Source: a virus
Virus record (IMG/VR): IMGVR_UViG_3300049988_000024
Span: 1-64,000 of that record
Length of the DNA: 64,000 bases
Strand: one strand, 5' to 3'
Of this stretch, positions 6,169 through 37,991 are shown piece after piece. Under the pieces are notes generated by a model. It was given only the letters and a program-made list of their open reading frames with translations, was not told where the DNA came from and did no database searches. Every line of letters starts with the position of its first letter. Within the stretch, counting starts at the first letter, position 1. Both the position numbers and the translations under genes were made by a program.

Positions 6169-6698
6169 TTGTCTTTGATACTGAGACGAGCGCGCTTTGG
6201 CAGAATACCCAACGCGCTCTTGCTAAACAACCTTGGACCGTAGAGTTATACGCCAAGCGCATTGACACTGAAACAGGTGAAGCCCTTGGCGACTACCATT
6301 CTTGGTTTAAGATCGGCGTTCCTATGGACGCCGGAGCCATGAAAGTTACAGGTTTGACGGAAGAATTTCTTCTGGACAAACCCACTTTTGTTTCTGAATC
6401 CGAGAAGATTCATGCGTTTATGCAGGATTGTGACGCTTACGCTGGCCACAATCTGCTCTTCGATTTGATGATGCTGAGCTTTGACTTCCGGCGTGCCGGG
6501 ATTGATTGGGACTATTCGGATAAGCGCTTGATTGATACGGTCTCGGAAAATGAATGGCGATTTGGCTTTCGTCCGAACTTGACATTGCTTCACGAAACGT
6601 TTTATAATGAAGGATTCGACGGAGCCCACGGCGCGAAGTCGGACGTTGAGGCGACTGAACGTTGCCTTATGTATATGGTGAAGGAAGGTTCGCTATGA
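6159..6698 (+). CDS. DEDDh 3'-5' exonuclease (DnaQ / pol III epsilon-like)
   Basis: Exo motifs VFDTETS, AGHNLLFDLMML and HGAKSDVEAT. Lies just upstream of the DnaE-type polymerase. Confidence 0.8.
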   Translation: MRVIVFDTETSALWQNTQRALAKQPWTVELYAKRIDTETGEALGDYHSWFKIGVPMDAGAMKVTGLTEEFLLDKPTFVSESEKIHAFMQDCDAYAGHNLLFDLMMLSFDFRRAGIDWDYSDKRLIDTVSENEWRFGFRPNLTLLHETFYNEGFDGAHGAKSDVEATERCLMYMVKEGSL

Positions 6699-11993: not shown

Positions 11994-12022
11994 TTGACTT
12001 TCGCGGTCATCTCGTGTATAAT
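11994..12022 (+). promoter_or_regulatory. consensus sigma70-type promoter upstream of the RNR gene
   Basis: TTGACT (11994-11999), 17 nt, TATAAT (12017-12022). Confidence 0.75.
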
Positions 12023-21631: not shown

Positions 21632-23869
21632 ATGGCGCAAATCGAATCATACGCAGATATTCCAGAGGTCAACGCATACGTCAAACGCCACGGGGCACAG
21701 TTCCGTTCGGCGTCGAAGGCGGTTGTAGAGGAGAAGGTTGGAGAGTATTTTCGCGAGGTCGCCAAGATCAAGTTCTCGCGCGATGGGACCGTCAAGGCAA
21801 CACCTGGATACGAACCGGATGAAGCGGAAGGCGAGCGGATCGCGTTCGCTATTCGCAATGGGCAGTGGCCTGTCTGGCGCATGGCAACGGAAGCGGATGA
21901 GCCGCCCGACGCCGTGAAGCGGGCACTAGCCGAGAACCCTGACGACGTGTTTGCTTATCGCGATGTGACCGGCAAGCGCATATACATGTATCAGGTTCGA
22001 TACATGACCAAGAAGGGCAAGCGGTCCTATCATGCGTGGACCATCTACGAGGACAACGTTTGGCGTCCATGGGAACCGGATACGGAGCATCTACCGCTCT
22101 ACGGCCTGGAAACGCTGAAGGACAACAGCGTTGCGATCATCCATGAAGGCGCCAAGGCCGCTCGGGCGATGCAACGCATGATCGCACAAAAGACGGCGAA
22201 AGACAAGCGCCTGTTCGAGAATCATCCATGGGCGCAAGAGCTTTCGTTCGCGGCTCATGTGGCGTTCACGGCGGGCGCATTTGCTGCCAAGGACACCGAA
22301 TGGGAGATGTTGCGCCGTAACGGGATCGAAAGCGTCATCATCATTCCCGACAATGACGAGGCGGGACGGTCCGCTGTTCGCGACATCAGCAAGGCGGTCG
22401 GGTTGCCCGCGAAGTGGGTTCAATTCGATTCGCGGTTCCCGTCGTCGTTCGATATGGCTGACCCAATGCCGGAGGCGTTGTTCGTGGAAGCGGACGGGAA
22501 GAAGCATTGGAAGGGGCCGACGTTCGGAGAACTGATTACGCCTTGCACATGGGCGACACGGTTGATTCCGAACCCCGACAAGCCGGAAAAGATGATCGCG
22601 ACGCTGAACAGGGCGTTTCAACGGGAATGGTTCTATGTCGGGCAAACAGGGTTGTTCGCTTGGCGGCACGATCCGCGCATTCGCTACAACGAAACCAGCT
22701 TTAATGCCAATATGCGGCGCTGTTCTGATGTGAAGGACACGGCGGCGCTTGTGTTACAGGGTTTGACGGATAGTATCGACAAGCTGACGTATCGCCCCGA
22801 CTTGCGGTCGCAGAATGGCGATCGGCGCGTGAACGAGGGAATCGGCGAAACGGCGCTGAACACCTATTCGCCAACCAATGTCAAGGCCATACCGGGCGAC
22901 GTGACGATGTGGCACGAGTTCCTGGCACATCTGATACCCGATGAATCCGAACGCAAGCTTGTGGAGCGGTGGATCGCAACAGTTGTTGCGCGGCCAGCAA
23001 CACGAATGCGTTATGCGATGCTTCTGACCTCAGCCATGCAAGGAACCGGCAAGACCACGCTTTGCGAAGCGGTGTTGCGTCCGCTTGTTGGCAAACAGAA
23101 CTACAATGCCGTCACCGAAGACACGATCATGAACCCGCAGTTCAACGACTGGTTTGTTGAAAAGACGCTGGTTGTCGTGAATGAGTTCTACCAGAACAAG
23201 ACTAATCGCGCAGGAAACAAACTGAAAAGCGTGATTTCCGACGATATTGCGATGGTGAACACGAAGTATTTGGTTCCCTATGCTATCCGCAATCACGCGC
23301 ATTTGATTGCTTGTTCTAACACGGCTGTCGCGGTCGGAATCGAGGACTCGGATCGTCGTTGGCTTATTCCGACGTGTACGGAAGAAGCCTGGAAGTGGTC
23401 GGATAAGTTCTATCGCTGGTTGCATAGCGGTGGCTTGGAAGCGATCAAGCATTGGGCGGATACCTACGGTGATTACGTGACCACGGGCGAGCGGGCGCCG
23501 GATACCAAGGCCAAGCGCATGATCGTGGAGGAATCGCGCACGCCTCGCTGTCAGGAGGCTTATAACCTTTGGCGGGCTTTGGAGGAGCAAGGGGCGGAAC
23601 GGTCGATATCGCAGCGCAGGCTGAACAATTGGCTGCGCGGGTTCGATGCGGGCTATGCCAAGGATAAGGACGTAGACTATCGAAAAGCGATCCTGGAAGC
23701 GGGCGGATCGATCCTGGATGAGCGCATGAGCATCGACGGACGACCTCAGTATGTGATGGTCACTTCGGCTTTGAAGGCAAAGATGCAACAGTTGGATAAT
23801 GAATTGCGGCGAAAACTTGTTCGTGAATCGCTGCTTTGTGACGAAGATATGGCCAATCCGACCATCTAG
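21632..23869 (+). CDS. primase-helicase (Toprim-type primase fused to SF3 / P4-alpha, D5-like helicase)
   Basis: 745 aa. Toprim-like IHEGAKAARA...VIIIPDNDEAGRSA; Walker A SAMQGTGKTT; Walker B LVVVNEF; SF3-like IACSN. Confidence 0.8.
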   Translation: MAQIESYADIPEVNAYVKRHGAQFRSASKAVVEEKVGEYFREVAKIKFSRDGTVKATPGYEPDEAEGERIAFAIRNGQWPVWRMATEADEPPDAVKRALAENPDDVFAYRDVTGKRIYMYQVRYMTKKGKRSYHAWTIYEDNVWRPWEPDTEHLPLYGLETLKDNSVAIIHEGAKAARAMQRMIAQKTAKDKRLFENHPWAQELSFAAHVAFTAGAFAAKDTEWEMLRRNGIESVIIIPDNDEAGRSAVRDISKAVGLPAKWVQFDSRFPSSFDMADPMPEALFVEADGKKHWKGPTFGELITPCTWATRLIPNPDKPEKMIATLNRAFQREWFYVGQTGLFAWRHDPRIRYNETSFNANMRRCSDVKDTAALVLQGLTDSIDKLTYRPDLRSQNGDRRVNEGIGETALNTYSPTNVKAIPGDVTMWHEFLAHLIPDESERKLVERWIATVVARPATRMRYAMLLTSAMQGTGKTTLCEAVLRPLVGKQNYNAVTEDTIMNPQFNDWFVEKTLVVVNEFYQNKTNRAGNKLKSVISDDIAMVNTKYLVPYAIRNHAHLIACSNTAVAVGIEDSDRRWLIPTCTEEAWKWSDKFYRWLHSGGLEAIKHWADTYGDYVTTGERAPDTKAKRMIVEESRTPRCQEAYNLWRALEEQGAERSISQRRLNNWLRGFDAGYAKDKDVDYRKAILEAGGSILDERMSIDGRPQYVMVTSALKAKMQQLDNELRRKLVRESLLCDEDMANPTI

Positions 23870-24534: not shown

Positions 24535-24563
24535 TTGACTTTTTGCGAGAAATATGTTATTTT
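24535..24563 (+). promoter_or_regulatory. candidate sigma70-type promoter for the HNH gene
   Basis: TTGACT (24535-24540), 17 nt, TATTTT (24558-24563). Confidence 0.45.
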
Positions 24564-24584
24564 CTTTGTTTAACGGAGAATAAC

Positions 24585-25085
24585 ATGAACGATTCGCATG
24601 ATGAGTTTAGACATAAGATCATTGGTCATTGGTGTACTTATTGCGGAGATAACGCCGAAGAGTTTGACCATTTCCCGCCGCGTGCCGTAACCAATTACGG
24701 TCTGCTAGTTCCTTGCTGTAGAGAGTGTAATAGTCACATATCGACTTTGTATGCGTTTTCCTTTAAAGATCGTTCGCTTTTAGCAAAAGATAAGATCAGG
24801 AAAAAATACTCGAAGCTTCTTCGAATACCTGAATGGGATGAAGAAGAGCTAAACGATATGGCTCCTCATATGCGTGATAGCGTTCTAGATGGTCAACGGA
24901 TTCAAGAAATTATAAAGCAACGATTAGCTTGGGACTCGTGGTCTTATCTAAAGGGCATTGACATTAAAAACGATATAGAACGGGTCGTTGTAGAAATAGA
25001 CCTAATTCTTGGAAATATGAAACGCGAATTTGACCGCTCAGAGCGTTTGAACAAGAAAAACGATCAGGACTTGCTCAAACCCTAG
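24585..25085 (+). CDS. HNH-type nuclease (packaging-associated position)
   Basis: CTYCG...EFDHFPP...PCCRECN Cys/His pattern. AT-rich. Lies upstream of the terminase genes. Confidence 0.6.
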   Translation: MNDSHDEFRHKIIGHWCTYCGDNAEEFDHFPPRAVTNYGLLVPCCRECNSHISTLYAFSFKDRSLLAKDKIRKKYSKLLRIPEWDEEELNDMAPHMRDSVLDGQRIQEIIKQRLAWDSWSYLKGIDIKNDIERVVVEIDLILGNMKREFDRSERLNKKNDQDLLKP

Positions 25086-25192: not shown

Positions 25193-25396
25193 TCATGTAT
25201 CGGTCAACATGCGAGCGGCCTGATTCATCGCTTCTCTCTTAGTTTGAGCGAAATTGATAAACACGCTCGGATTCCATTTTCCCATCACGCGCCACCGAAA
25301 GCCGTCATAGAACTGCGCCTTTTCCACCGTAACCTTATGCTTGCCTTGCACGATCTCGTACTTGCCTGCGGCTATGCGATGTGACTTCAGGTTCAT
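25193..25396 (-). CDS. hypothetical protein (67 aa)
   Basis: ORF track 25193..25468. ATG at 25396 after AGGAGAG. Confidence 0.6.
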   Translation of the reverse strand: MNLKSHRIAAGKYEIVQGKHKVTVEKAQFYDGFRWRVMGKWNPSVFINFAQTKREAMNQAARMLTDT

Positions 25397-25463
25397 GACT
25401 GCGCTCTCCTGTTTTGGCCTAGCTCCTTGGGGCGTCGTGCCGGTTTCGATAAACACAGCCTGC

Positions 25464-25493
25464 GACATATCGCCTTAGCCGTCAAGCGGTCAA
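25464..25493 (-). promoter_or_regulatory. candidate promoter for the 25396 gene
   Basis: Minus strand TTGACC (25488-25493), 18 nt, TATGTC (25464-25469). Confidence 0.35.
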
Positions 25494-25521
25494 ATCACGT
25501 TTTTGTAAATTATTTTTGGGC

Positions 25522-25550
25522 TTGACAAACGTAATGAAATAGCTTATAAT
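25522..25550 (+). promoter_or_regulatory. perfect consensus sigma70 promoter with upstream A/T tract
   Basis: TTGACA (25522-25527), 17 nt, TATAAT (25545-25550). TTTTGTAAATTATTTTT at 25501-25517 resembles an UP element. Confidence 0.8.
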
Positions 25551-25556
25551 CATGAG

Positions 25557-26102
25557 CATAACTCGCCAAAGCCTCTCCCAACGCATTGTCGGTTCTACTT
25601 GCATTGCCCTGGTCGAGTCTTAAAGGCCAAAGCGCGAGTCTCCTGCCTCCGCATGAAGCGTATAGAGGCGGGCGCGACTAGACGGGCTGCTTCTCTCCCG
25701 GTTCGTCTAGTCCTCAGTTTGAATTGGGTGCGATGCTGGAAAACGCCTAGCCATTTGGTTTTAGTGAGGTGCTTCGGCTGCTGTTCCCAATAATGCCAAT
25801 CGTGCCAGAACCCCGTGGCAAGGGCACGACAACCGCTTGAGTCTTGCGTAATGCTGACGAGGTTGAAAGGGGTGTTACAACTGGCGAAAGCCATGCGCCG
25901 CGAATGGCGCACTTATTCGATGTCTACAGGGGTCATCGACCCTTAGGCAGAGACGTTCTGAGCGTCTAGCCTTAGCCGCTTTGTGAAGGCGGCTAGAAAT
26001 TGCTTAGTGGCCAATGCTTAGCTTCGGTTGTGGCAGACACTAGGCTTGAGGCGGGATCACATCGGCTGCAAGCTGCGATCTTGACAGGACGCCCGCCTTT
26101 TT
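25557..26102 (+). ncRNA. candidate large structured non-coding RNA (about 550 nt)
   Basis: No credible ORF on either strand. Many hairpins: 25676-25684/25704-25712 (9 bp), 25800-25806/25823-25829, GAAA tetraloop 25882-25893, 25894-25911, 25973-25979/25989-25995. The terminal stem 26050-26055/26092-26097 is followed by TTTTT. Confidence 0.45.
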
Positions 26103-26108
26103 GAATTT

Positions 26109-26184
26109 CTGGGTGTAGCTCAGTTGGTAGAGTCCCGCGTTTGGAGCGCGGTTGTCGTTGGTTCGAGTCCAGCCACCTAGACCA
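26109..26184 (+). tRNA. tRNA-Pro (anticodon TGG) with encoded CCA
   Basis: Hand-folded cloverleaf: acceptor CTGGGTG/CACCTAG, D arm GCTC..GAGT, anticodon arm CCGCG-TTTGGAG-CGCGG, T arm GTTGG-TTCGAGT-CCAGC, then A-CCA. Confidence 0.85.
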
Positions 26185-26290
26185 TTTTGAGTGGGAGTGA
26201 TGAGGAACGCTAACCCAGAAGCGTCTAAGTCTAGGGGTAGAAGCTATGTTTGGGTTGAATAGCACAATGCAACCGCCCCGCTCAATTCAA

Positions 26291-26401
26291 ATCAGGACGT
26301 ACACGGCCCGGTAACGGTGTCCGTCTTCGCGGGAGACTCCGATCAGACCCGCTTGCATATAGAGCCCGCTGACTTTCGGATAGAGCGGGTTCCGTCCTGA
26401 T
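26291..26401 (+). other. structured leader element upstream of terS
   Basis: 9-bp closing helix ATCAGGACG (26291-26299) / CGTCCTGAT (26393-26401). Two alternative left arms (ACCCGCT 26347-26353, GCCCGCT 26364-26370) compete for AGCGGGT (26384-26390). Confidence 0.4.
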
Positions 26402-26472
26402 ATCATCGTTCAACTATAATGAACAATCGAGTTAATTGTCAATTATTTTACGATATAAGCCAAGGAGGCCAA

Positions 26473-26895
26473 ATGTCTGAGGATAACCCGGTTGGGCGTC
26501 CTTCGCTCTTTAGGGAAGAATACGGCGATGTCATTATTGAATGGATGGACAAGGGTTTTAGTCTTACGGCGGCTGCATCACGTCTAGATGTTAGCCGCCA
26601 AACTGTTTACAATTGGGTAGACGAACACCCCGAATTCGCAGCCAAGGTGAAGATAGCTCAATCAAAGCGCCAGTTCTTCCTTGAGAATCGCCTACTGAAG
26701 GCGACTGAAGGCCCGGTCGTCACCTCTTCCATCTTCGCCCTCAAGAACGCCGCCCCCGCCGATTGGCTAGAGAAGACCCATACAGAGGTCACGGGCAAGG
26801 ACGGCGGGCCGATAGAGTCTAAGCAGTCGCTTGACATCACGGGCCTATCCGATGCGGTACTAGAAGAACTGCTTTCGAAGTTGGGGCAAAAGTAA
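26473..26895 (+). CDS. terS: terminase small subunit
   Basis: ORF track 26419..26895. ATG at 26473 after AGGAGG. GRPSLFREEYGDVIIEWMDKGFSLTAAASRLDVSRQTVYNWVDEHPEF is a typical TerS HTH N-terminus. Confidence 0.8.
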   Translation: MSEDNPVGRPSLFREEYGDVIIEWMDKGFSLTAAASRLDVSRQTVYNWVDEHPEFAAKVKIAQSKRQFFLENRLLKATEGPVVTSSIFALKNAAPADWLEKTHTEVTGKDGGPIESKQSLDITGLSDAVLEELLSKLGQK

Positions 26896-26913
26896 AGGGC
26901 CGTAAAGGCCCTT
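26895..26913. terminator. bidirectional hairpin between terS and the antisense cassette
   Basis: AAGGGCC-GTAAA-GGCCCTT. Confidence 0.55.
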
Positions 26914-27115
26914 AATTACTTCCTAGAAGTCTCAAGCTTTCTGGGATTTCAAGATCAAAAACAGGGTCAAGCTCTACCCCTCCTCCCTCAAAAGACCAAG
27001 CGTCCCACCCTCGTGTCTTAATTCCTAGCATAGCTAGTTTCGAAAATTGATAGAAATCTTCTCTTTCGAATGAAGATCGTGGATCAATTAGACATGTTGC
27101 TTTGTAGTATGCCAT
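26912..27115 (-). CDS. hypothetical protein (cassette A, gene A1)
   Basis: ORF track. AT-rich; GGAGAG RBS; own promoter. Confidence 0.6.
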   Translation of the reverse strand: MAYYKATCLIDPRSSFEREDFYQFSKLAMLGIKTRGWDAWSFEGGGVELDPVFDLEIPESLRLLGSN

Positions 27116-27141
27116 CTCATCTCTCCGTTCTCAACACCCAC

Positions 27142-27170
27142 AACATAGCCCGTGGTTTGGGGCTTGTCAA
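27142..27170 (-). promoter_or_regulatory. promoter of A1
   Basis: Minus strand TTGACA (27165-27170), 17 nt, TATGTT (27142-27147). The A2 TGA stop (27167-27169) lies inside the -35. Confidence 0.55.
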
Positions 27171-27370
27171 CTAGAAATATTGTCTTCTTTGGTTGGGCTT
27201 ACAGTTCCAACGATACGTTTCTGTGTATAGTATTCATTTGGAACACAATCGTACTTACCGCGCTTGAATTCAATGATCTTGTAAGGCTCTTTCATTGTAT
27301 CGGCCCAAGCTTGCGCTTTTGCGAATGCCCACGCTTCCGAGCATGGTTTGAGAGAAAGAAAATAGCTCAT
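27167..27370 (-). CDS. hypothetical protein (A2)
   Basis: ORF track. Confidence 0.6.
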   Translation of the reverse strand: MSYFLSLKPCSEAWAFAKAQAWADTMKEPYKIIEFKRGKYDCVPNEYYTQKRIVGTVSPTKEDNISS

Positions 27371-27523
27371 TTAAGCCACCTTCTTAAGAAGAAAAATTTC
27401 AATCGAAGCATCAGCCGTGTAAATTTCGGCAAGCTGCGCAATGATATCCTGACGATCAATTGCGTATGTTTCCATAAACTTGGAAACGCCGTCGATGTAT
27501 GCCATGAAAGCGAACTTGGACAT
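27371..27523 (-). CDS. hypothetical small protein (A3, 50 aa)
   Basis: ORF track 27371..27697. Internal ATG at 27523 after CGGAG (MSKFAFMAYIDG...). Confidence 0.5.
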   Translation of the reverse strand: MSKFAFMAYIDGVSKFMETYAIDRQDIIAQLAEIYTADASIEIFLLKKVA

Positions 27524-27547
27524 CTGCTTGCTCCGTTTCGATGATTG

Positions 27548-27576
27548 ATATTCGCACACGGCCGAAACCCTGTCAA
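27548..27576 (-). promoter_or_regulatory. promoter of A3-A2
   Basis: Minus strand TTGACA (27571-27576), 17 nt, GAATAT (27548-27553). The A4 TGA stop (27573-27575) lies inside the -35. Confidence 0.5.
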
Positions 27577-27842
27577 CAAGAATCCGCAATCTCTCGCGAT
27601 TTAATTTCGGCATATTCTTCAACGGCCAGAACGTACAATCCCCAATCCGTCCGCTTTCGCCCTGGCCAAACCGATGCCTTCTCAAATCCCATACCACGCT
27701 CTAGAGCATATTCCTGAGCCTTCTCGATGAAGGCAAAGAAGTCCCAAGTCGGTGGCAAAGGATCGCCTTCCACCAGCCCTTTTGACCGGAGGAAGGCGCG
27801 ATAAAAATCGGTGTAAACCGAAAGCTCTTCGACTCTCTTCAT
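27573..27842 (-). CDS. hypothetical protein (A4)
   Basis: ORF track 27573..27854. ATGA overlap at 27842. Confidence 0.6.
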   Translation of the reverse strand: MKRVEELSVYTDFYRAFLRSKGLVEGDPLPPTWDFFAFIEKAQEYALERGMGFEKASVWPGRKRTDWGLYVLAVEEYAEIKSREIADSC

Positions 27843-28033
27843 GCAACCATCCACATCGAACCGTTCTTGGTGATCAGGCCCTTCTCAGAAGCCATACGGA
27901 AAGCAGCCGAGTAAGCAGCGCGGGTGTGCGAGACGTTGAAGTAGGAAGCGACGAACCAAGACTGACCGGCGTTGATGGCGTCCACGATCTCGTTAAAGCA
28001 GACTTCGACAGAGGGGTTGAGGTTGCGGGCCAT
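27839..28033 (-). CDS. hypothetical protein (A5)
   Basis: ORF track; AGGAA RBS. Confidence 0.6.
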   Translation of the reverse strand: MARNLNPSVEVCFNEIVDAINAGQSWFVASYFNVSHTRAAYSAAFRMASEKGLITKNGSMWMVA

Positions 28034-28070
28034 TTGCTTCGTTCCTGTGTTTGTCCGTTTCGATGATCAA

Positions 28071-28099
28071 GTTATAGCCCTACCCCAAATCCCTGTCAA
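28071..28099 (-). promoter_or_regulatory. promoter of A5-A4
   Basis: Minus strand TTGACA (28094-28099), 17 nt, TATAAC (28071-28076). Confidence 0.6.
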
Positions 28100-28145
28100 C
28101 CACTTTCTCGCATCCAACGCAAAATAATCAGAAGGACCAGACCCC

Positions 28146-28220
28146 ATGTCCATCGAACGAATCCTAGGCATCTGCATTCTCGTAATCTTGGTCGTATGGC
28201 TGGCGACAAGGGTTCTGTAG
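28146..28220 (+). CDS. possible 24-aa hydrophobic peptide on the opposite strand
   Basis: Hand-found: MSIERILGICILVILVVWLATRVL, between the A5 promoter and the A6 terminator. No clear RBS. Confidence 0.25.
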   Translation: MSIERILGICILVILVVWLATRVL

Positions 28221-28229
28221 GCAAAGGAA

Positions 28230-28248
28230 AAGGGGCTTAGCGCCCCTT
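28230..28248 (-). terminator. rho-independent terminator of the A9-A6 unit
   Basis: Minus strand AAGGGGC-GCTAA-GCCCCTT followed by TTTCCTTTG. Confidence 0.6.
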
Positions 28249-28629
28249 AACCATTTTATACGTAACGCCTTGGCTTTCAAATAGGCGGGTTGCCCAATCG
28301 CCGTCTAGCGGGTTGAAGCCTGTCATCGAGCCTTCTGCGATGAGGCCGCGTACAAGCTTTAGGCCGCTAACAAGGGCGTCCCGCTCAGCGGTCAGGGATT
28401 CGATTTCAAGCGCATCTCGCTCTGAATCAGAACAGAGCTTTTCCCAACCCTGCATGGTCGCATCCATGTTGGCGAACTCTTCGTTAAGCCGACGCTTCAA
28501 CTCGTCGCGTTCAGCCGTCAGGGATTCGATTTCCTCAGCCGCTTCCTTAATGACGCCCCGCAAATTGCCAGGATGAGCGTTTTCGTACAGCGTCCATTCG
28601 CGAAGTTTATCGGCGAAAGTCTTTTCCAT
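28237..28629 (-). CDS. coiled-coil protein with internal EIESLTAERD(E/A)L repeat (A6)
   Basis: ORF track 28237..28668. ATG at 28629 after GGGAGAAAAG. Confidence 0.6.
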   Translation of the reverse strand: MEKTFADKLREWTLYENAHPGNLRGVIKEAAEEIESLTAERDELKRRLNEEFANMDATMQGWEKLCSDSERDALEIESLTAERDALVSGLKLVRGLIAEGSMTGFNPLDGDWATRLFESQGVTYKMVKGR

Positions 28630-28802
28630 CACTTTTCTCCCGTCTTCGGCACCGCCACCATCTCGCAAGCATACACGTTATGCTGACGGGCGCAATCGCG
28701 GAGCTTGCGTTCATACTTGTTAGGTGATCCAAAAATCAAGATCGCAAGCCCAAACCCAATTATCAGGGAGCCGACCCCGACAAGTGCTAGAGACTTCATC
28801 AT
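28629..28802 (-). CDS. small membrane protein (A7, 57 aa)
   Basis: Hand-found. GGAGGAAGGACG then ATGATG at 28802 (MMKSLALVGVGSLIIGFGLAILIFG...). Confidence 0.5.
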   Translation of the reverse strand: MMKSLALVGVGSLIIGFGLAILIFGSPNKYERKLRDCARQHNVYACEMVAVPKTGEK

Positions 28803-28927
28803 CGTCCTTCCTCCACAACATACCCACGCGCCACCAAGAACGCACGGGCTTCGTCTAGCATGTGGGTGGGCAAGCTGTAAACGCCTTGGAACTTGCGGCC
28901 GGGTTGGGTGAAGCGGATGGTGATCAT
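28799..28927 (-). CDS. hypothetical small protein (A8)
   Basis: ORF track 28799..28987. The longer form overlaps A9, so the ATG at 28927 is preferred (MITIRFTQPGRKF...). Start uncertain. Confidence 0.4.
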   Translation of the reverse strand: MITIRFTQPGRKFQGVYSLPTHMLDEARAFLVARGYVVEEGR

Positions 28928-28946
28928 TTGTAAAATACCTTGTTGA

Positions 28947-29156
28947 TTAGATTTCGAGTTCGCGCAGGAAAACGCGATCGTTTGCAATTTTTCGAATTTC
29001 AGCAGCTAGCTCAAAGTCGCGCTCAGCCAACATCTCGGAAACAGTGTTTGCATTATCACCAAAAGGTGCAACATGCTTGGAGTTGGATGCGGTGTTTGCG
29101 CCCTCAATTATAAGAGCGGCACGATTCAAGATTTGGTTCATTTGTAAGCGGTTCAT
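28947..29156 (-). CDS. hypothetical protein (A9)
   Basis: ORF track; AGGAGA RBS. Confidence 0.6.
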   Translation of the reverse strand: MNRLQMNQILNRAALIIEGANTASNSKHVAPFGDNANTVSEMLAERDFELAAEIRKIANDRVFLRELEI

Positions 29157-29182
29157 CGTCTTTCTCCTACGGTTCCCCGTTA

Positions 29183-29211
29183 CGTGTAGCTGAGGATGGG
29201 TTGGGTGTCAA
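29183..29211 (-). promoter_or_regulatory. promoter of A9-A6
   Basis: Minus strand TTGACA (29206-29211), 17 nt, TACACG (29183-29188). The A10 TGA stop (29208-29210) lies inside the -35. Confidence 0.45.
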
Positions 29212-29450
29212 GTACCGTAAAAATCAGAATTTTCGCGAATTGAATATGTTGCTGGATTTCCGTTGCCATCTATAAAAGAAATCTCAATCTTTTCGGATGT
29301 CACGCGCTTGACGGTCAAGTCCTTAATGCGGGTATTGATGCACTTTGAAACAACAAAACCGCTCGCTGTCTCCAGATCATTTGCGGTTATAGCCCAAGCT
29401 GTTGTGAAAGGCAACTTAGATGGCACAGCTTCAATGATAAAGGTCTTCAT
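29208..29450 (-). CDS. hypothetical protein (A10)
   Basis: ORF track 29208..29477. ATG at 29450 after AGGAG. Confidence 0.6.
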   Translation of the reverse strand: MKTFIIEAVPSKLPFTTAWAITANDLETASGFVVSKCINTRIKDLTVKRVTSEKIEISFIDGNGNPATYSIRENSDFYGT

Positions 29451-29476
29451 CTCTCTTCTCCTTTGTCCACAATCCA

Positions 29477-29505
29477 TGTGTAGCGGGTTTGGGGTGGGTG
29501 GTCAA
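29477..29505 (-). promoter_or_regulatory. promoter of A10
   Basis: Minus strand TTGACC (29500-29505), 17 nt, TACACA (29477-29482). The A11 TGA stop (29502-29504) lies inside the -35. Confidence 0.45.
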
Positions 29506-29771
29506 TCGCTTTTCTTCGGCAATCTAGCTTCTGGCCAGCCGAGTTTAGCGCACCAAACGGTTCGCGCTTCTAGATAGCGCCAAGGAAATTCATCACCGCA
29601 ATTTCTAACATAGTCGTCTTCCCAACGCAGCGCAGTTATCTCCCAAGCCTTTGCGCGATATTCTCCTTTGCCTAGCAGCATATCGCAAGCTCTTTCGTGG
29701 GCCTCCGCTCGGAAGCGGAGGAGGGTTTCGTATTTGTGTCGGGCGTAGATTTCATCCATTCCTTCGATCAT
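29502..29771 (-). CDS. hypothetical protein (A11)
   Basis: ORF track. Confidence 0.6.
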   Translation of the reverse strand: MIEGMDEIYARHKYETLLRFRAEAHERACDMLLGKGEYRAKAWEITALRWEDDYVRNCGDEFPWRYLEARTVWCAKLGWPEARLPKKSD

Positions 29772-29914
29772 GCCACGATCTCGCGAGTCTCGATTTCGAT
29801 AAGCTGGCAGGAGTAGAAACCGCCAAATTCGCGCATCCGAAAACCATGAGCGCGGGGAACGATGCGGATTTCAACGGCGCTGTTGTGGTTGTCCTGAGTG
29901 TGCATTTCGATCAT
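29768..29914 (-). CDS. hypothetical small protein (A12, 48 aa)
   Basis: Hand-found. ACGGAGCAAACAA then ATG at 29914. ATGA overlap with A11. Confidence 0.45.
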   Translation of the reverse strand: MIEMHTQDNHNSAVEIRIVPRAHGFRMREFGGFYSCQLIEIETREIVA

Positions 29915-29950
29915 TTGTTTGCTCCGTTGTGTTCGCCTTTTGTGATTACG

Positions 29951-29979
29951 AATATGCCTGACCCGATAACGAGTGTCAA
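29951..29979 (-). promoter_or_regulatory. promoter of A12-A11, back-to-back with the terL start
   Basis: Minus strand TTGACA (29974-29979), 17 nt, CATATT (29951-29956). Confidence 0.5.
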
Positions 29980-29987
29980 CACATAAA

Positions 29988-31457
29988 ATGCCTAAACCCG
30001 CATCTATTCCGCTTAGTCGCCTACCGAGCGTCGATCAGATCGAAACCGAGCTTAGCCGTCGCCATTGTCAGCGCTCGTTCCGCGAGTTCGCTAAGCAGGC
30101 TTGGCATGTCATCGAACCGTCCACCTCGCTCAAATGGAATTGGGCGATGGACGCTATCTGCGATCACCTCCAAGCCGTCCACGAAGGTCACATCAAGCGC
30201 CTCCTGATGAACGTGCCTCCTGGTACGTCTAAATCGACGCTGACGGGCGTTCTCTATCCGGCTTGGGTGTGGACGCAAGACCCTTCGAAACGCTTCCTAG
30301 GGACGGCCCATAAGGCTGAGCTTGCGCACCGAGACAATCTGAAGTGCCGTCGTATCATTCAGTCCGAATGGTATCAGAAGCGTTGGAAGATCGAACTGAC
30401 GGGCGATGCTAACCGCACAACCAAATTCGAGAACACAAAGACCGGCTTTCGCGAATCGATGGCCTTTACTGGCATGACGGGTTCCCGTGGCGACTGCGTG
30501 ATTCTTGACGATCCGATTAGCGCGGGCAATTCAAATAGCGAAGCCGAGCTTTACAAGGCCGAAATCGAGTTCACGGAAACGCTGCCAACGCGCGTCAACA
30601 ATGACGAATCGGCCATTATCGTCGTGATGCAGCGGCTTAACGAACGTGATACGTCTGGTCTCATCCTGAGCCGCGATCTTGGATACGAACACTTGATGTT
30701 GCCTATGCGCTTTGAGCCTGAGCGCAAGTGTTATACTTCGATTGGCTTTGGAGACCCGCGCACCGAAGAAGGCGAATTGCTCTTTCCTGAGCGCTTCCCT
30801 GAATCACAGGTCGCAAGCCTAGAGAAGACGATGGGATCGTTCGGCGCGGCTGGCCAGTTGCAGCAACGGCCTATTCCGCGTGGTGGTGGACTCTTTCAGC
30901 GATCTTGGTTCAATCCGATCCGAGAAGTGCCGCAGGGCACACGCTTCTTCCGAGGATGGGACTTAGCCGCTTCCACTAGTGCTACTTCGGCCTATACCGC
31001 AGGCGTCAAGCTTGGCCTTACGCCAGAAGGCCGGATCGTTATTGCCCATGCTATCCGTGACCGCATGACGGCTGGCAAGGTCATTGCAACTATTCGCGCA
31101 ACGGCTATGGCCGATACTGAGAAAACAAAGCTATCGATCCCGCAAGACCCTGGCCAAGCGGGCAAGGCTCAAAAGGAAGGATTCGCGCAACAGCTTCGTG
31201 AGTTCAATGTGCATTTCTCGCCTGAGTCTGGCGACAAGGTGACGCGCGCCGAACCTTTCGCGGCACAAGCCGAAGCCGGTCTTGTGGATATCGTCGTTGG
31301 CGAGTGGACAGACGCCTATCTAGACGAGATTTCAACGTTCCCGAATGGATCGTATCTCGATCAGGTAGACGCGACTTCGCGCGCCTACCATTTGTTGTTG
31401 CGGGAAACAGCAAAACCAAAAGCGACTATCGGCTGGGGTCCGAAGTTGGTTAGTTAA
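29988..31457 (+). CDS. terL: terminase large subunit
   Basis: ORF track 29973..31457 (ATG at 29988 preferred over GTG at 29973). Walker A-like NVPPGTSKST; VILDDP Walker B; C-terminal nuclease-like half. Length and N-terminus are typical of TerL. Confidence 0.85.
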   Translation: MPKPASIPLSRLPSVDQIETELSRRHCQRSFREFAKQAWHVIEPSTSLKWNWAMDAICDHLQAVHEGHIKRLLMNVPPGTSKSTLTGVLYPAWVWTQDPSKRFLGTAHKAELAHRDNLKCRRIIQSEWYQKRWKIELTGDANRTTKFENTKTGFRESMAFTGMTGSRGDCVILDDPISAGNSNSEAELYKAEIEFTETLPTRVNNDESAIIVVMQRLNERDTSGLILSRDLGYEHLMLPMRFEPERKCYTSIGFGDPRTEEGELLFPERFPESQVASLEKTMGSFGAAGQLQQRPIPRGGGLFQRSWFNPIREVPQGTRFFRGWDLAASTSATSAYTAGVKLGLTPEGRIVIAHAIRDRMTAGKVIATIRATAMADTEKTKLSIPQDPGQAGKAQKEGFAQQLREFNVHFSPESGDKVTRAEPFAAQAEAGLVDIVVGEWTDAYLDEISTFPNGSYLDQVDATSRAYHLLLRETAKPKATIGWGPKLVS

Positions 31458-33384: not shown

Positions 33385-34728
33385 ATGGCGCTAGGCCCGC
33401 TCAGGAACTTCCTTGGCTTTTCTGGTGCCATTGACAAGAAACCAGTTGCTCCCCTCCGCGAAATGGGCGTTTCCAACGTCCAGGTTTTCGGGGGTTTTCT
33501 TGCGACCGCCGAACGTGCGCGCCAGTTGCAGGGGCAGGAAAAGTTTCGCACCTATAACGACATCGTTTCAAATTGCTCGATTGTTGCAGCATCGATTCGT
33601 TTTTATTCCAACGTCCTGACCAACAGCGAATGGAAGGTCAACGCGCCCGACGATTCGGCGGCAGCGCAGCAATATGCTGACTTCGTTGAAGACGTGATGT
33701 ACGGCATGGAATCCTCGTGGGATCGCATCATCCGACGCGCCGCAGGATTCAAGTTCTCCGGTTGCTCCGTCAACGAATGGACGGCACGCCGTACCGAGAA
33801 CGGCCAGATCGTTTATCGCAATATCGAAGCCCGCGCCCCTGGCACCATCACGCAATGGGACCTGGATGAACAAGGCAATGTGCAAGGCTTCGTTCAGCGC
33901 GATCCTAACACGCAAGAGGAAGTCTACCTTCCTCGCGCCAAGACCATCTATCTTGTTGACGATATGCTGAGCGACCAGCCTGACGGCTTGGGCTTGCTTC
34001 GTCATTGCGCCGAACCAGCGGAACGGCTGAAGGCATATCAAATTCTTGAACAGCGCGGATATGAGCGCGACTTGCGCGGTATCCCAATTGGCCACGCACC
34101 TTATGCTGAACTTGCGGATTGGGCGGGCGACGATCCTGAACGACTGGCAAGAGCGCAACAACACACATCCGCTATTGAAAACTTTGTTTCCATGCAAGTC
34201 AAGGGCGAATCCACGGGTGTCGTTCTGGATTCGCGAACCTACACATCGCAAAGCGATACGGGTAACAGCGTTACCGGCCAGCGTCAATGGGATTTGAGCC
34301 TTCTTCAGGGCGGCGCAAATGGCTTGAGCGATATGGCCGCTGCGGTCACGCGCCTGAATACGGAGATGGCGCGTGTTCTTGGTTGCGAGATGCTTCTTCT
34401 TGGCGAAACCGCGTCGTCACAAGCCTTGTCAAAGGACAAGTCAGGCAACCTTTTTTTGAGCGTCAATTCCACGCTGAAAGACCTTACCTCACAATTCGAC
34501 AAGGACTTCATTGATCCGCTATGGGAAATGAACGGATTTCCCGATGAATACAAGCCTTACTTTTCGACAGAAGACGTTGCGAAGCGTACCGCTGAAGATA
34601 TCGCGGAAACCTTGGCAAATCTTGCGCGTGCTGCGCTTCAGCCTGACGACGAAGCCACGGATTACGTGCGTGGCATGTTGGGCGTTCCGAATCAACCCGA
34701 ATCTACTTTAGCTGTAACCGAAGTCTAA
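33385..34728 (+). CDS. portal protein (Mu gp29 / DUF935-like by general resemblance)
   Basis: 447 aa, first structural gene after terL, with a MuF-like gene downstream. The family call is from memory of similar N-termini and is not verified. Confidence 0.7.
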   Translation: MALGPLRNFLGFSGAIDKKPVAPLREMGVSNVQVFGGFLATAERARQLQGQEKFRTYNDIVSNCSIVAASIRFYSNVLTNSEWKVNAPDDSAAAQQYADFVEDVMYGMESSWDRIIRRAAGFKFSGCSVNEWTARRTENGQIVYRNIEARAPGTITQWDLDEQGNVQGFVQRDPNTQEEVYLPRAKTIYLVDDMLSDQPDGLGLLRHCAEPAERLKAYQILEQRGYERDLRGIPIGHAPYAELADWAGDDPERLARAQQHTSAIENFVSMQVKGESTGVVLDSRTYTSQSDTGNSVTGQRQWDLSLLQGGANGLSDMAAAVTRLNTEMARVLGCEMLLLGETASSQALSKDKSGNLFLSVNSTLKDLTSQFDKDFIDPLWEMNGFPDEYKPYFSTEDVAKRTAEDIAETLANLARAALQPDDEATDYVRGMLGVPNQPESTLAVTEV

Positions 34729-37962: not shown

Positions 37963-37991
37963 TTGACAATTAATTGCTTTTGTTGTATAAT
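37963..37991 (+). promoter_or_regulatory. perfect consensus sigma70 promoter inside the structural region
   Basis: TTGACA (37963-37968), 17 nt, TATAAT (37986-37991). Confidence 0.75.

Follow-up and report, generated by a model that had tools for sequence, protein, structure and literature searches.

A mosaic array of short structured RNA modules around a tRNA-Pro gene, between the replication and packaging genes of a tailed phage

What is encoded in the gap of about 1 kb, devoid of any credible gene, that lies between the replication and packaging modules of the tailed phage represented by IMG/VR virus record IMGVR_UViG_3300049988_000024? In the DNA analysed here, positions 1 to 64,000 of that record (hereafter, the window), this gap holds a consensus promoter followed by a run of hairpins and a tRNA-Pro gene. 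The original prediction, made from the sequence alone, interpreted the approximately 550 nucleotides (nt) between promoter and tRNA as one ornate RNA of the GOLLD or ROOL type, or as a new class of RNA. Comparison with related phages yields a different answer. The stretch is a chain of about a dozen short, structured modules, not one giant RNA, and we consider it, with a probability of roughly 0.6, to be a phage operon of tRNAs and other stable RNAs that is processed into discrete small RNAs, in which, most speculatively, the first and the last module (A and F) would be the core and the middle modules accessory.

Relatives were collected by searches of IMG/VR and JGI metagenomes guided by TerS, the terminase small subunit encoded 3' of the array, followed by searches of a large protein collection and contig retrieval; the comparison set comprised about 12 distinct arrays, denoted here by L numbers. 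In pairwise comparison, the 550-nt stretch is not kept as a unit. Relatives share separate blocks only, in varying combinations and orders, which is at odds with the proposed single RNA. The modules and the distribution of the corresponding blocks are as follows (z, folding energy relative to shuffled sequences):

25522-25550, plus strand: sigma70-type promoter, -35 TTGACA (25522-25527), 17-nt spacer, -10 TATAAT (25545-25550), score 12/12
25561-25712, plus strand: module A, first after the promoter, consisting of A0, A1 and A2; the block 25506-25722, promoter included, occurs in every relative that includes the 5' end
25561-25639, plus strand: module A0, leader domain closed by ACUCGCC/GCGAGU (z = -2.0)
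25642-25672, plus strand: module A1, bulged hairpin with a conserved UGAA-containing loop (covariance model R1)
25676-25712, plus strand: module A2, 14-bp hairpin with a C/U-rich 9-nt loop, CUUCUCUCC, at 25690-25698
25723-25791, plus strand: Y-shaped spacer module seen in the window only, closed by AUUGGG/CCCAAU (predicted fold, z = -1.8)
25794-25877, plus strand: module B, sequence-constrained, containing the hairpin 25800-25829 (z = 0.05); in L002, L011, L012 and L018 at 94-98% identity
25878-25917, plus strand: module C, GAAA-tetraloop hairpin (25882-25893) and GCGCC hairpin (25894-25911) (z = -2.7; one compensatory pair); block 25875-25917 in L002, L003, L004 and L011 at 88-92% identity
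25918-26045, plus strand: run of four hairpins seen in the window only (25928-25944, 25945-25972, 25973-25995 and 26002-26045)
26048-26102, plus strand: module D, branched stem-loop GGCGGG.../...CCCGCC followed by UUUUU (z = -1.2); block 26044-26098 in L012 and L024 at about 81% identity
26109-26184, plus strand: tRNA-Pro (anticodon TGG) with an encoded CCA end (ARAGORN; RF00005, 57.8 bits against a gathering score of 29); in L001, L023, L024, L025 and L027
26187-26285, plus strand: module E, RNA of about 99 nt with a 9-bp terminal stem around three hairpins (z = -2.1); block 26186-26289 in L007 and L018 at 78-81% identity
26291-26401, plus strand: module F, four-way junction of about 111 nt (covariance model R2; z = -2.8); block 26290-26402 in all relatives but L001

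About 25723-25793 and 25918-26045 are private to the window. The exchanged units are independent modules of 30-115 nt that can be present, absent or reordered: the block at L011:157-214 lies after module B, and its copy at L012:876-933 lies before B. The common plan consists of the promoter, module A, a variable middle and module F, the middle containing zero to three tRNAs (Pro, Met, Trp, Thr) and shuffled structured spacers. It takes the following forms:

L023: A, spacers, tRNA-Pro, tRNA-Met, tRNA-Trp, F, TerS
L025: A, spacers, tRNA-Pro, spacer, tRNA-Thr, F, TerS
L024: A, spacers, D, tRNA-Pro, F, tRNA-Met-like gene, terminator hairpin, convergent gene, TerS
L018: same build as L024, the array ending in a terminator hairpin, with a convergent gene after it
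L002, L003, L004 and L012: A, spacers, F; no tRNA
L001: A, tRNA-Trp, spacer, tRNA-Pro; no F

The ends of the homology blocks for A, D, E, F and the tRNA fall within a few nt of the ends of predicted structural domains, and each of these blocks thus behaves like a small gene. Because module F belongs to the common plan and starts 2-3 nt past the CCA end of the preceding tRNA in L023, L024, L025 and L027, the unit in the window reaches 26401. The element had been taken to end with the tRNA-Pro at 26184; the array continues through two more structured RNAs. A hairpin-dense run behind a strong promoter, which looked like one ornate RNA, proves to be a chain of independent units, and similar runs call for the same caution.

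GOLLD and ROOL are structured non-coding RNAs of phages and prophages that are often found beside tRNA genes, each a single conserved RNA, of about 580 nt for ROOL and about 800 nt for GOLLD. The array resembles them in being non-coding and structured, in its phage setting and in its adjacency to a tRNA. Rfam 15, which holds both families, was scanned with cmscan across the whole window at the gathering threshold, across 25300-26600 at E<=10 and across 12 related loci at E<=1. In the window, only the tRNA was found, along with one chance match to sX7, and neither GOLLD (RF01998) nor ROOL (RF03087) was detected; the twelve related loci yielded tRNAs only. Thus, the proposed kinship with these RNAs finds no covariance-model match at E<=10, and the units of 30-115 nt are, unlike GOLLD and ROOL, exchanged independently of each other. 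Because modules are inserted, deleted and reordered, a conserved long-range architecture is ruled out, and one large RNA dependent on it is incompatible with the data. The many hairpins capped by GNRA or UUCG and the strong promoter would suit a single folded unit of at least 550 nt, whether a GOLLD/ROOL-type RNA or a comparable new class, but the long-range pairs of the global minimum-free-energy fold are unsupported (global z = -1.6) and the mosaic comparison already contradicts such a unit, so that we regard it as very improbable. The notion of a new class survives in part: portions of the array match no Rfam family, but they do not form one RNA of several hundred nt. Given the lack of an Rfam match, modules A and F are RNA motifs without a described family.

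The sequence from 25557 onward, for about 850 nt, is non-coding. The open reading frames (ORFs) present, a plus-strand ORF of 64 aa and minus-strand ORFs of 105 and 90 aa, the 90-aa one crossing the tRNA, are as originally described and are not genes. All frames are interrupted by stops, substitutions relative to the relatives lack 3-nt periodicity and are spread evenly across codon positions (p = 0.4-0.9), and the alignments contain frequent 1-2-nt indels that break the frame. TerS, used as the control, gave p = 1e-11 to 1e-14 for codon periodicity and zero indels. A conserved ORF with codon-biased substitutions, which would have refuted the original prediction, is not seen in the relatives.

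The promoter, TTGACA-17-TATAAT, is preceded by an A/T-rich, UP-element-like tract (25500-25519, plus strand, read from the sequence); comparable tracts lie 5' of the promoter in L001, L003 and L025, whose upstream gene is divergent. In every relative whose contig takes in the 5' end, the promoter CTTGACAA...TATAAT/TATACT occupies the same position, and transcription of the array would start near 25557. The promoter had been called the best in the window, but it merely ties for that rank because 12/12 is likewise reached at 37963 (spacer 17) and 6579 (spacer 18). L024 has another consensus promoter, TTGACA-17-TATAGT, about 200 nt ahead of that of the array, and some 180 nt of further non-coding sequence come after it (L024:1320-1520).

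The decisive evidence for structure comes from comparison, through covariation in A and F. In the module A alignment of 10 sequences, 94.4% of the cells are paired, against 47% or less with slid partners, nine pairs show double changes, and none of 500 shuffles reaches the covariation score. The 10-pair lower helix of A2 is 99% paired, with compensatory double changes in 8 of the 10 pairs; across lineages, its stem of 13-14 bp is almost fully rewritten and the loop stays pyrimidine-rich (CUUCUCUCC, UCCUCUCUC or UCCUCUCCUC). The lower helices of A1 are 95-96% paired (10 sequences), and A1 and A2 together fold with z = -4.2. A0 has the same closing stem but a different apical hairpin in L001 and L025, and some compensatory pairs in a 6-sequence alignment. 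For module F, 96.5% of the cells are paired in 12 sequences, with 13 double-change pairs (0 of 500 shuffles). Its terminal stem of 9 bp, AUCAGGACG/CGUCCUGAU, is invariant and encloses three hairpins, one of them with a GUAA tetraloop, and model R2 scores 95-138 bits in 12 distinct sequences. R1 and R2 each match once per locus and on the plus strand only. Each alignment was fitted to its model and agrees with the slid-partner controls and with independent MAFFT and RNAalifold results. Homology search and covariation analysis, the check to which the predicted RNA structure was to be put, thus come out positive for these two modules, and all eight hairpins that had been pointed out are recovered at the same positions in the predicted folds.

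Many pairs in the helices of A and F are G-U, which would be A-C mismatches on the opposite strand, and the models match the plus strand only; this favours an RNA over a DNA element. The gap could be imagined to hold a DNA-level element, such as an origin or a pac or cos site between the replication and packaging modules, with the hairpins serving as cruciforms or protein-binding sites: it directly follows the primase/helicase module and precedes terS, the cumulative GC skew stops rising near 25-26 kb, and the 9-bp inverted repeat that forms the terminal stem of F is invariant. However, the array contains no iterons or tandem repeats, a conserved promoter is aimed into it and tRNA genes are embedded in it, and a DNA element is therefore hardly to be expected here.

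A different concern is that only the tRNAs matter and that the rest is debris of a tRNA cluster, that is, decayed tRNAs, recombination scars and stabilising hairpins. Several modules of the window have no homologue anywhere, the content is highly variable and the z-score of the whole region is unremarkable. Moreover, directly 3' of module A in L024 (L024:1720-1800), a canonical T-arm sequence, GGGGTTCGAATCCTC, and an acceptor-like stem mark a remnant resembling a tRNA that neither ARAGORN nor Rfam calls as one, which hints that some spacer modules are tRNA-derived. The conservation of A, F and B speaks against debris. The pairing of A and F is kept through 9 and 13 compensatory pair changes, respectively; window-type F has 89-96% identity in phages with TerS proteins at only 66-70%; module B has 94-98% identity, against about 80% for terS DNA; and L002, L003, L004 and L012 retain A, F and spacers without any tRNA. 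The window-only hairpins may be debris, but for A, F and B this explanation does not hold, and as an account of the whole array it is improbable.

Under the processed-operon reading, the promoter would produce one untranslated precursor, which host tRNA-maturation nucleases would cut in the short A/U-rich linkers, with RNase P acting at the tRNA 5' ends and the other sites falling to RNase E, RNase Z or exonucleases, freeing the tRNA together with discrete small RNAs. A0, E and F, each with its own 5' and 3' ends paired in a terminal stem, would be protected in the manner of tRNAs. In line with this reading, A and F lie around tRNA genes in independent samples in which TerS is only 66-70% identical. 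Most speculatively, A and F would be the functional core, which makes or stabilises the precursor or acts in trans, a possibility raised by the anti-Shine-Dalgarno-like loop of A2 and by the cloverleaf topology that E and F share with tRNAs, and the shuffled middle modules would be accessory. Because no terminator follows F in the window (none is predicted between 26402 and 26472, that is, between the end of the array and terS), read-through past F probably adds to terS expression there. Nevertheless, the array appears to be an autonomous operon and not merely a terS leader because, in L018 and L024, it ends at a terminator hairpin with a convergent gene beyond it.

The same arrangement bears on the most substantial competing explanation, namely, that A is a cis-acting antitermination leader, similar to HK022 put or of the nut or ops type working with a NusG paralogue, and that the rest is the regulated 5' leader of the packaging operon, with read-through into terS and the late genes. 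A is invariably the first element 3' of the promoter, the array abuts terS without a terminator in 8 loci, and the U-run of module D in the window would require read-through. In phage HK022, the put RNAs (putL and putR) are about 70-75 nt long and form two adjacent stem-loops just downstream of a strong phage promoter (PMC9378689). A1 (31 nt) and A2 (37 nt), 2-3 nt apart and about 75 nt in total, have the size and shape of put RNA, so that A likewise offers a two-stem-loop RNA of about 70 nt 3' of a phage promoter, about 85 nt from the inferred start. This likeness is one of size and shape. A1 and A2 lie 85-100 nt from the inferred start and behind the extra domain A0. The put RNA binds RNA polymerase and thereby suppresses terminators at a distance; it works on the gammaproteobacterial enzyme, and the likely host here belongs to a different clade, the Alphaproteobacteria. 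Any antitermination activity of A is putative. Five relatives encode a NusG/RfaH-like protein whose stop codon overlaps the array promoter:

L004:2857-3312, L002:2383-2838, L003:2189-2635, L012:179-634 and L018:447-902: 151-aa NGN+KOW (NusG/Spt5/RfaH-like) protein, Pfam KOW 3e-6

Long untranslated transcripts are normally terminated by Rho, and the presence of this gene immediately upstream of a promoter for such a transcript recalls the operon-specific NusG paralogues RfaH and LoaP, whose targets are leader elements of long operons. In contrast to these systems, the gene is absent from the window, and no ops-like or LoaP-type leader was identified. The search for a NusG-like gene in the window by tblastn, hidden Markov model and KOW regular expression was negative throughout, and no NusG/KOW-like ORF is called upstream of the array in L023, L024 and L025. 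A termination-proof polymerase would be harmful in L018 and L024, where the terminator hairpin is followed by a convergent gene. Finally, F is missing from L001, which has terS, and this type of terS is missing from L018, which has F, showing that the array is not tied to terS. On balance, an antitermination leader is unlikely, and we retain the processed operon as the preferred reading.

Several additional observations concern the NGN+KOW protein and possible pairing of A2. All PDB sequence matches of the protein are to Spt5, NusG or RfaH, and the overlap of its stop codon is with the -35 element of the array promoter. With only 2 clusters among 5.8 billion proteins, this is a very rare family, and the AlphaFold2 (AF2) model of the relatives' protein, with a pLDDT of 44, is unusable. 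In the window, its slot is filled by an HNH-like ORF (24543-25085) and a minus-strand ORF. Two candidate pairings in cis were rejected: that of the A2 loop with the terS ribosome-binding site, since L002-type terS lacks GGAGG, and a leader-trailer pairing between the A1 flank and F2, which are complementary at 10 of 11 nt in the window, with no conservation in the relatives.

The closest known counterpart of the proposed operon is the end of the tRNA cluster of phage T4, where the record shows tRNA-Arg followed 1 nt later by rnaD (119 nt) and 6 nt later by rnaC (139 nt). T4 processes the RNAs of this cluster with RNase P and RNase E. In the window, tRNA-Pro is similarly followed after 2 nt by E (99 nt) and after another 5 nt by F (111 nt), so that in both phages non-tRNA structured RNAs lie head to tail with tRNAs on one strand behind one promoter. 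The fold of rnaC is that of an enlarged tRNA-like molecule comprising a terminal stem and multiple arms, as in E and F, and rnaC, rnaD, A and F all lack an Rfam family; for the T4 pair (L032, phage T4 70908-71171), the best match is a sub-threshold one to tRNA-Sec on rnaC (17.5 bits). To our knowledge, rnaC and rnaD have no assigned function. There are also clear differences: rnaC has a canonical T-arm, GGGUUCGAAUCCC, and E and F have none; the tRNAs are optional here (0-3) and non-tRNA modules dominate; and the array has a conserved leader RNA, A, and a middle that is shuffled between close relatives. R2 run over the T4 locus with filters off gave no match on rnaC or rnaD. Since F is not homologous to either, the likeness is an analogy of design, not family membership.

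The tRNA likeness of E and F is limited to their four-way topology. No tRNA core (RF00005) was found in either at E<=10, and ARAGORN gave nothing credible with its thresholds lowered to 90% and only implausible calls with them at 80%. No match was found between E and F that would indicate paralogy. The consensus fold of E includes one compensatory pair, among three near-identical sequences. A relaxed ARAGORN search for degenerate tRNAs among the modules produced noise only, for example, 'tmRNAp' calls.

A number of points weigh against the processed operon. The precursor, its cleavage sites and the stability of its products are all things that we infer, and the most speculative part is the casting of A and F as the functional core. 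The covariation comes from few independent lineages, with an effective sequence number of 1.1-1.4, and four of the arrays come from one JGI sample series, with L023-L027 originating from other studies. The folding energy of 25557-26108 as a whole is unexceptional (z = -1.6; 6 of 100 shuffles are as stable), and module B is conserved in sequence yet folds no better than shuffles. No homologue of 25723-25791 or 25918-26045 was found in any relative, and these parts may be inert spacer. The complementarity of the A2 loop to ribosome-binding sites of the GGAGAG type is generic; there are few GGAGAG sites, and they point to no specific target. The AATT linker motif is only weakly enriched (23 observed against 15.9 +/- 3.4 expected, the counts being non-independent); RNase E-like 'AAUU' punctuation was dropped on this account.

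Beyond the operon itself, A, F and perhaps B and E might be functional phage RNAs of new classes, linked to tRNA operons and acting as tRNA-shaped decoys against host defences that target tRNAs or as scaffolds for processing of the precursor, with the stretch from A to F being a recombining island of exchangeable RNA genes. This is a tentative proposal that we would not favour at present; if it were true, the stretch would be a non-coding counterpart of the accessory and anti-defence islands of phage proteins.

Phage tRNA clusters are usually read as sets of tRNAs for codon usage or counter-defence. The locus described here would be a second case, unrelated to that of T4 and comparatively tractable, of stable RNAs that travel with phage tRNAs. 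A and F remain constant while tRNAs and other modules are swapped, and some relatives are free of tRNAs; this suggests that selection acts on the non-tRNA RNAs as the core of such operons. The covariance models for A and F can be used to find further members. In the data available, the A/F family appears to be narrow. Searches of INPHARED phages by blastn and megablast yielded similarity limited to the tRNA, the non-coding DNA being found in none of them, and Rhizobium phage RHph_X3_2, the nearest phage by TerL, has no comparable gap. The TerS profile and the module B pattern had no matches in bacterial genomes, and pattern scans of IMG/VR for modules A, B and F and for the window's A2 hairpin either turned up nothing or led back to the same small set of contigs. 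More distant TerS relatives (54-64% identity) showed neither A nor F. One of these, at 54% identity, has a gene-free gap of 1.1 kb with tRNA-Met and tRNA-Thr before terS (L031:1711-2821) in which A and F are undetected; for this reason, a tRNA-bearing non-coding gap before terS may be more widespread than A and F.

The A2 loop resembles an anti-Shine-Dalgarno sequence, which invites comparison with the small RNAs of the cuckoo (alpha-r14) family. In Alphaproteobacteria, these RNAs (CcsR1-4, NfeR1) consist of 2-4 adjacent hairpins with CCUCCUCCC in every loop (PMC4615179). Module A shares with them freely varying stems, a conserved, pyrimidine-rich, anti-Shine-Dalgarno-like loop, an arrangement in co-transcribed clusters and a probable host clade that is alphaproteobacterial. 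It differs in that only A2 has such a loop, with the motif YCCUCUCYC instead of CCUCCUCCC, and that the loop of A1 is of the UGAA type. Membership in the family was rejected: the motif does not occur in each loop, there is no Rfam alpha-r match and there is no specific target.

Within 25557-26108, exceptional folding is confined to sub-regions. Against the whole-stretch value, 25640-25714 (A1 and A2) and 25918-26001, within the window-only run, each reach z = -4.2, and 25878-25917 (module C) reaches z = -2.7; the last of the window-only hairpins (26002-26047) gives z = -1.85. The Y-shaped module at 25723-25791 is without comparative support, having no homologue in any relative. The 78-nt core of module B has four variable sites. 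Module B, which varies so little, may contain an H-type pseudoknot (GCCA/UGGC and CGUGCC/GGCACG). In the window only, 11 nt of B (25826-25836) are perfectly complementary to the anticodon-stem/variable-loop region of tRNA-Pro (26148-26158); about 0.1 chance matches are expected in the stretch, and the match is probably a coincidence. A closing stem followed by TTTTT had been noted ahead of the tRNA. Both are present in the window as part of module D, with the tRNA starting 7 nt after the TTTTT, as stated (26098-26102 and 26109), but the homologues of D at L012:1043-1095 and L024:1852-1914 (about 81% identity) both lack the T-run, and the structure thus does not stand as a conserved terminator.

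The genes around the array are the following:

21632-23869: primase/helicase, replication module, upstream of the array
24543-25085: HNH-like ORF, upstream of the array
25193-25468, minus strand: small ORF, upstream of the array
26473-26895, plus strand: TerS (PHROG 309, 6e-25; Pfam Sf6_terminase), 3' of the array
29973-31457: TerL, packaging module, downstream
33385-34728: portal gene, packaging module, downstream

The nearest TerL proteins, at 50-55% identity, belong to Rhizobium and Paracoccus phages, and one TerS relative is located in the genome of Oricola (Rhizobiales); on these grounds, an alphaproteobacterial host is likely. Consensus or near-consensus promoters of the sigma70 type precede phage genes elsewhere on the plus strand of the window, at 6579 and 37963 (12/12 each) and at 11994 and 33331 (11/12 each), one such site lying directly upstream of the portal gene, and the phage seems to rely on host-type promoters throughout. 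On the minus strand, a promoter-like site, TTGACA-18-TATAGT (11/12), lies at 26413-26442; being oriented back into module F and the tRNA, it would give antisense RNA. The site is also present in L027 and is not kept in more distant relatives.

Between TerS and TerL lies a block of 3 kb made up of small ORFs on the minus strand (26900-29970). Within this block, islands of 40-70 nt match relatives at 84-98% identity, and the intervening ORFs differ:

27113-27181, 27518-27579, 28085-28127, 28627-28682, 29152-29212 and 29445-29509: islands of 84-98% identity

The islands read as conserved minus-strand promoters of the TTGACA type with ribosome-binding sites. Because such conserved promoter and ribosome-binding-site islands flank differing ORFs, the block from 26900 to 29970 is suggested to be a region of shuffled accessory genes.

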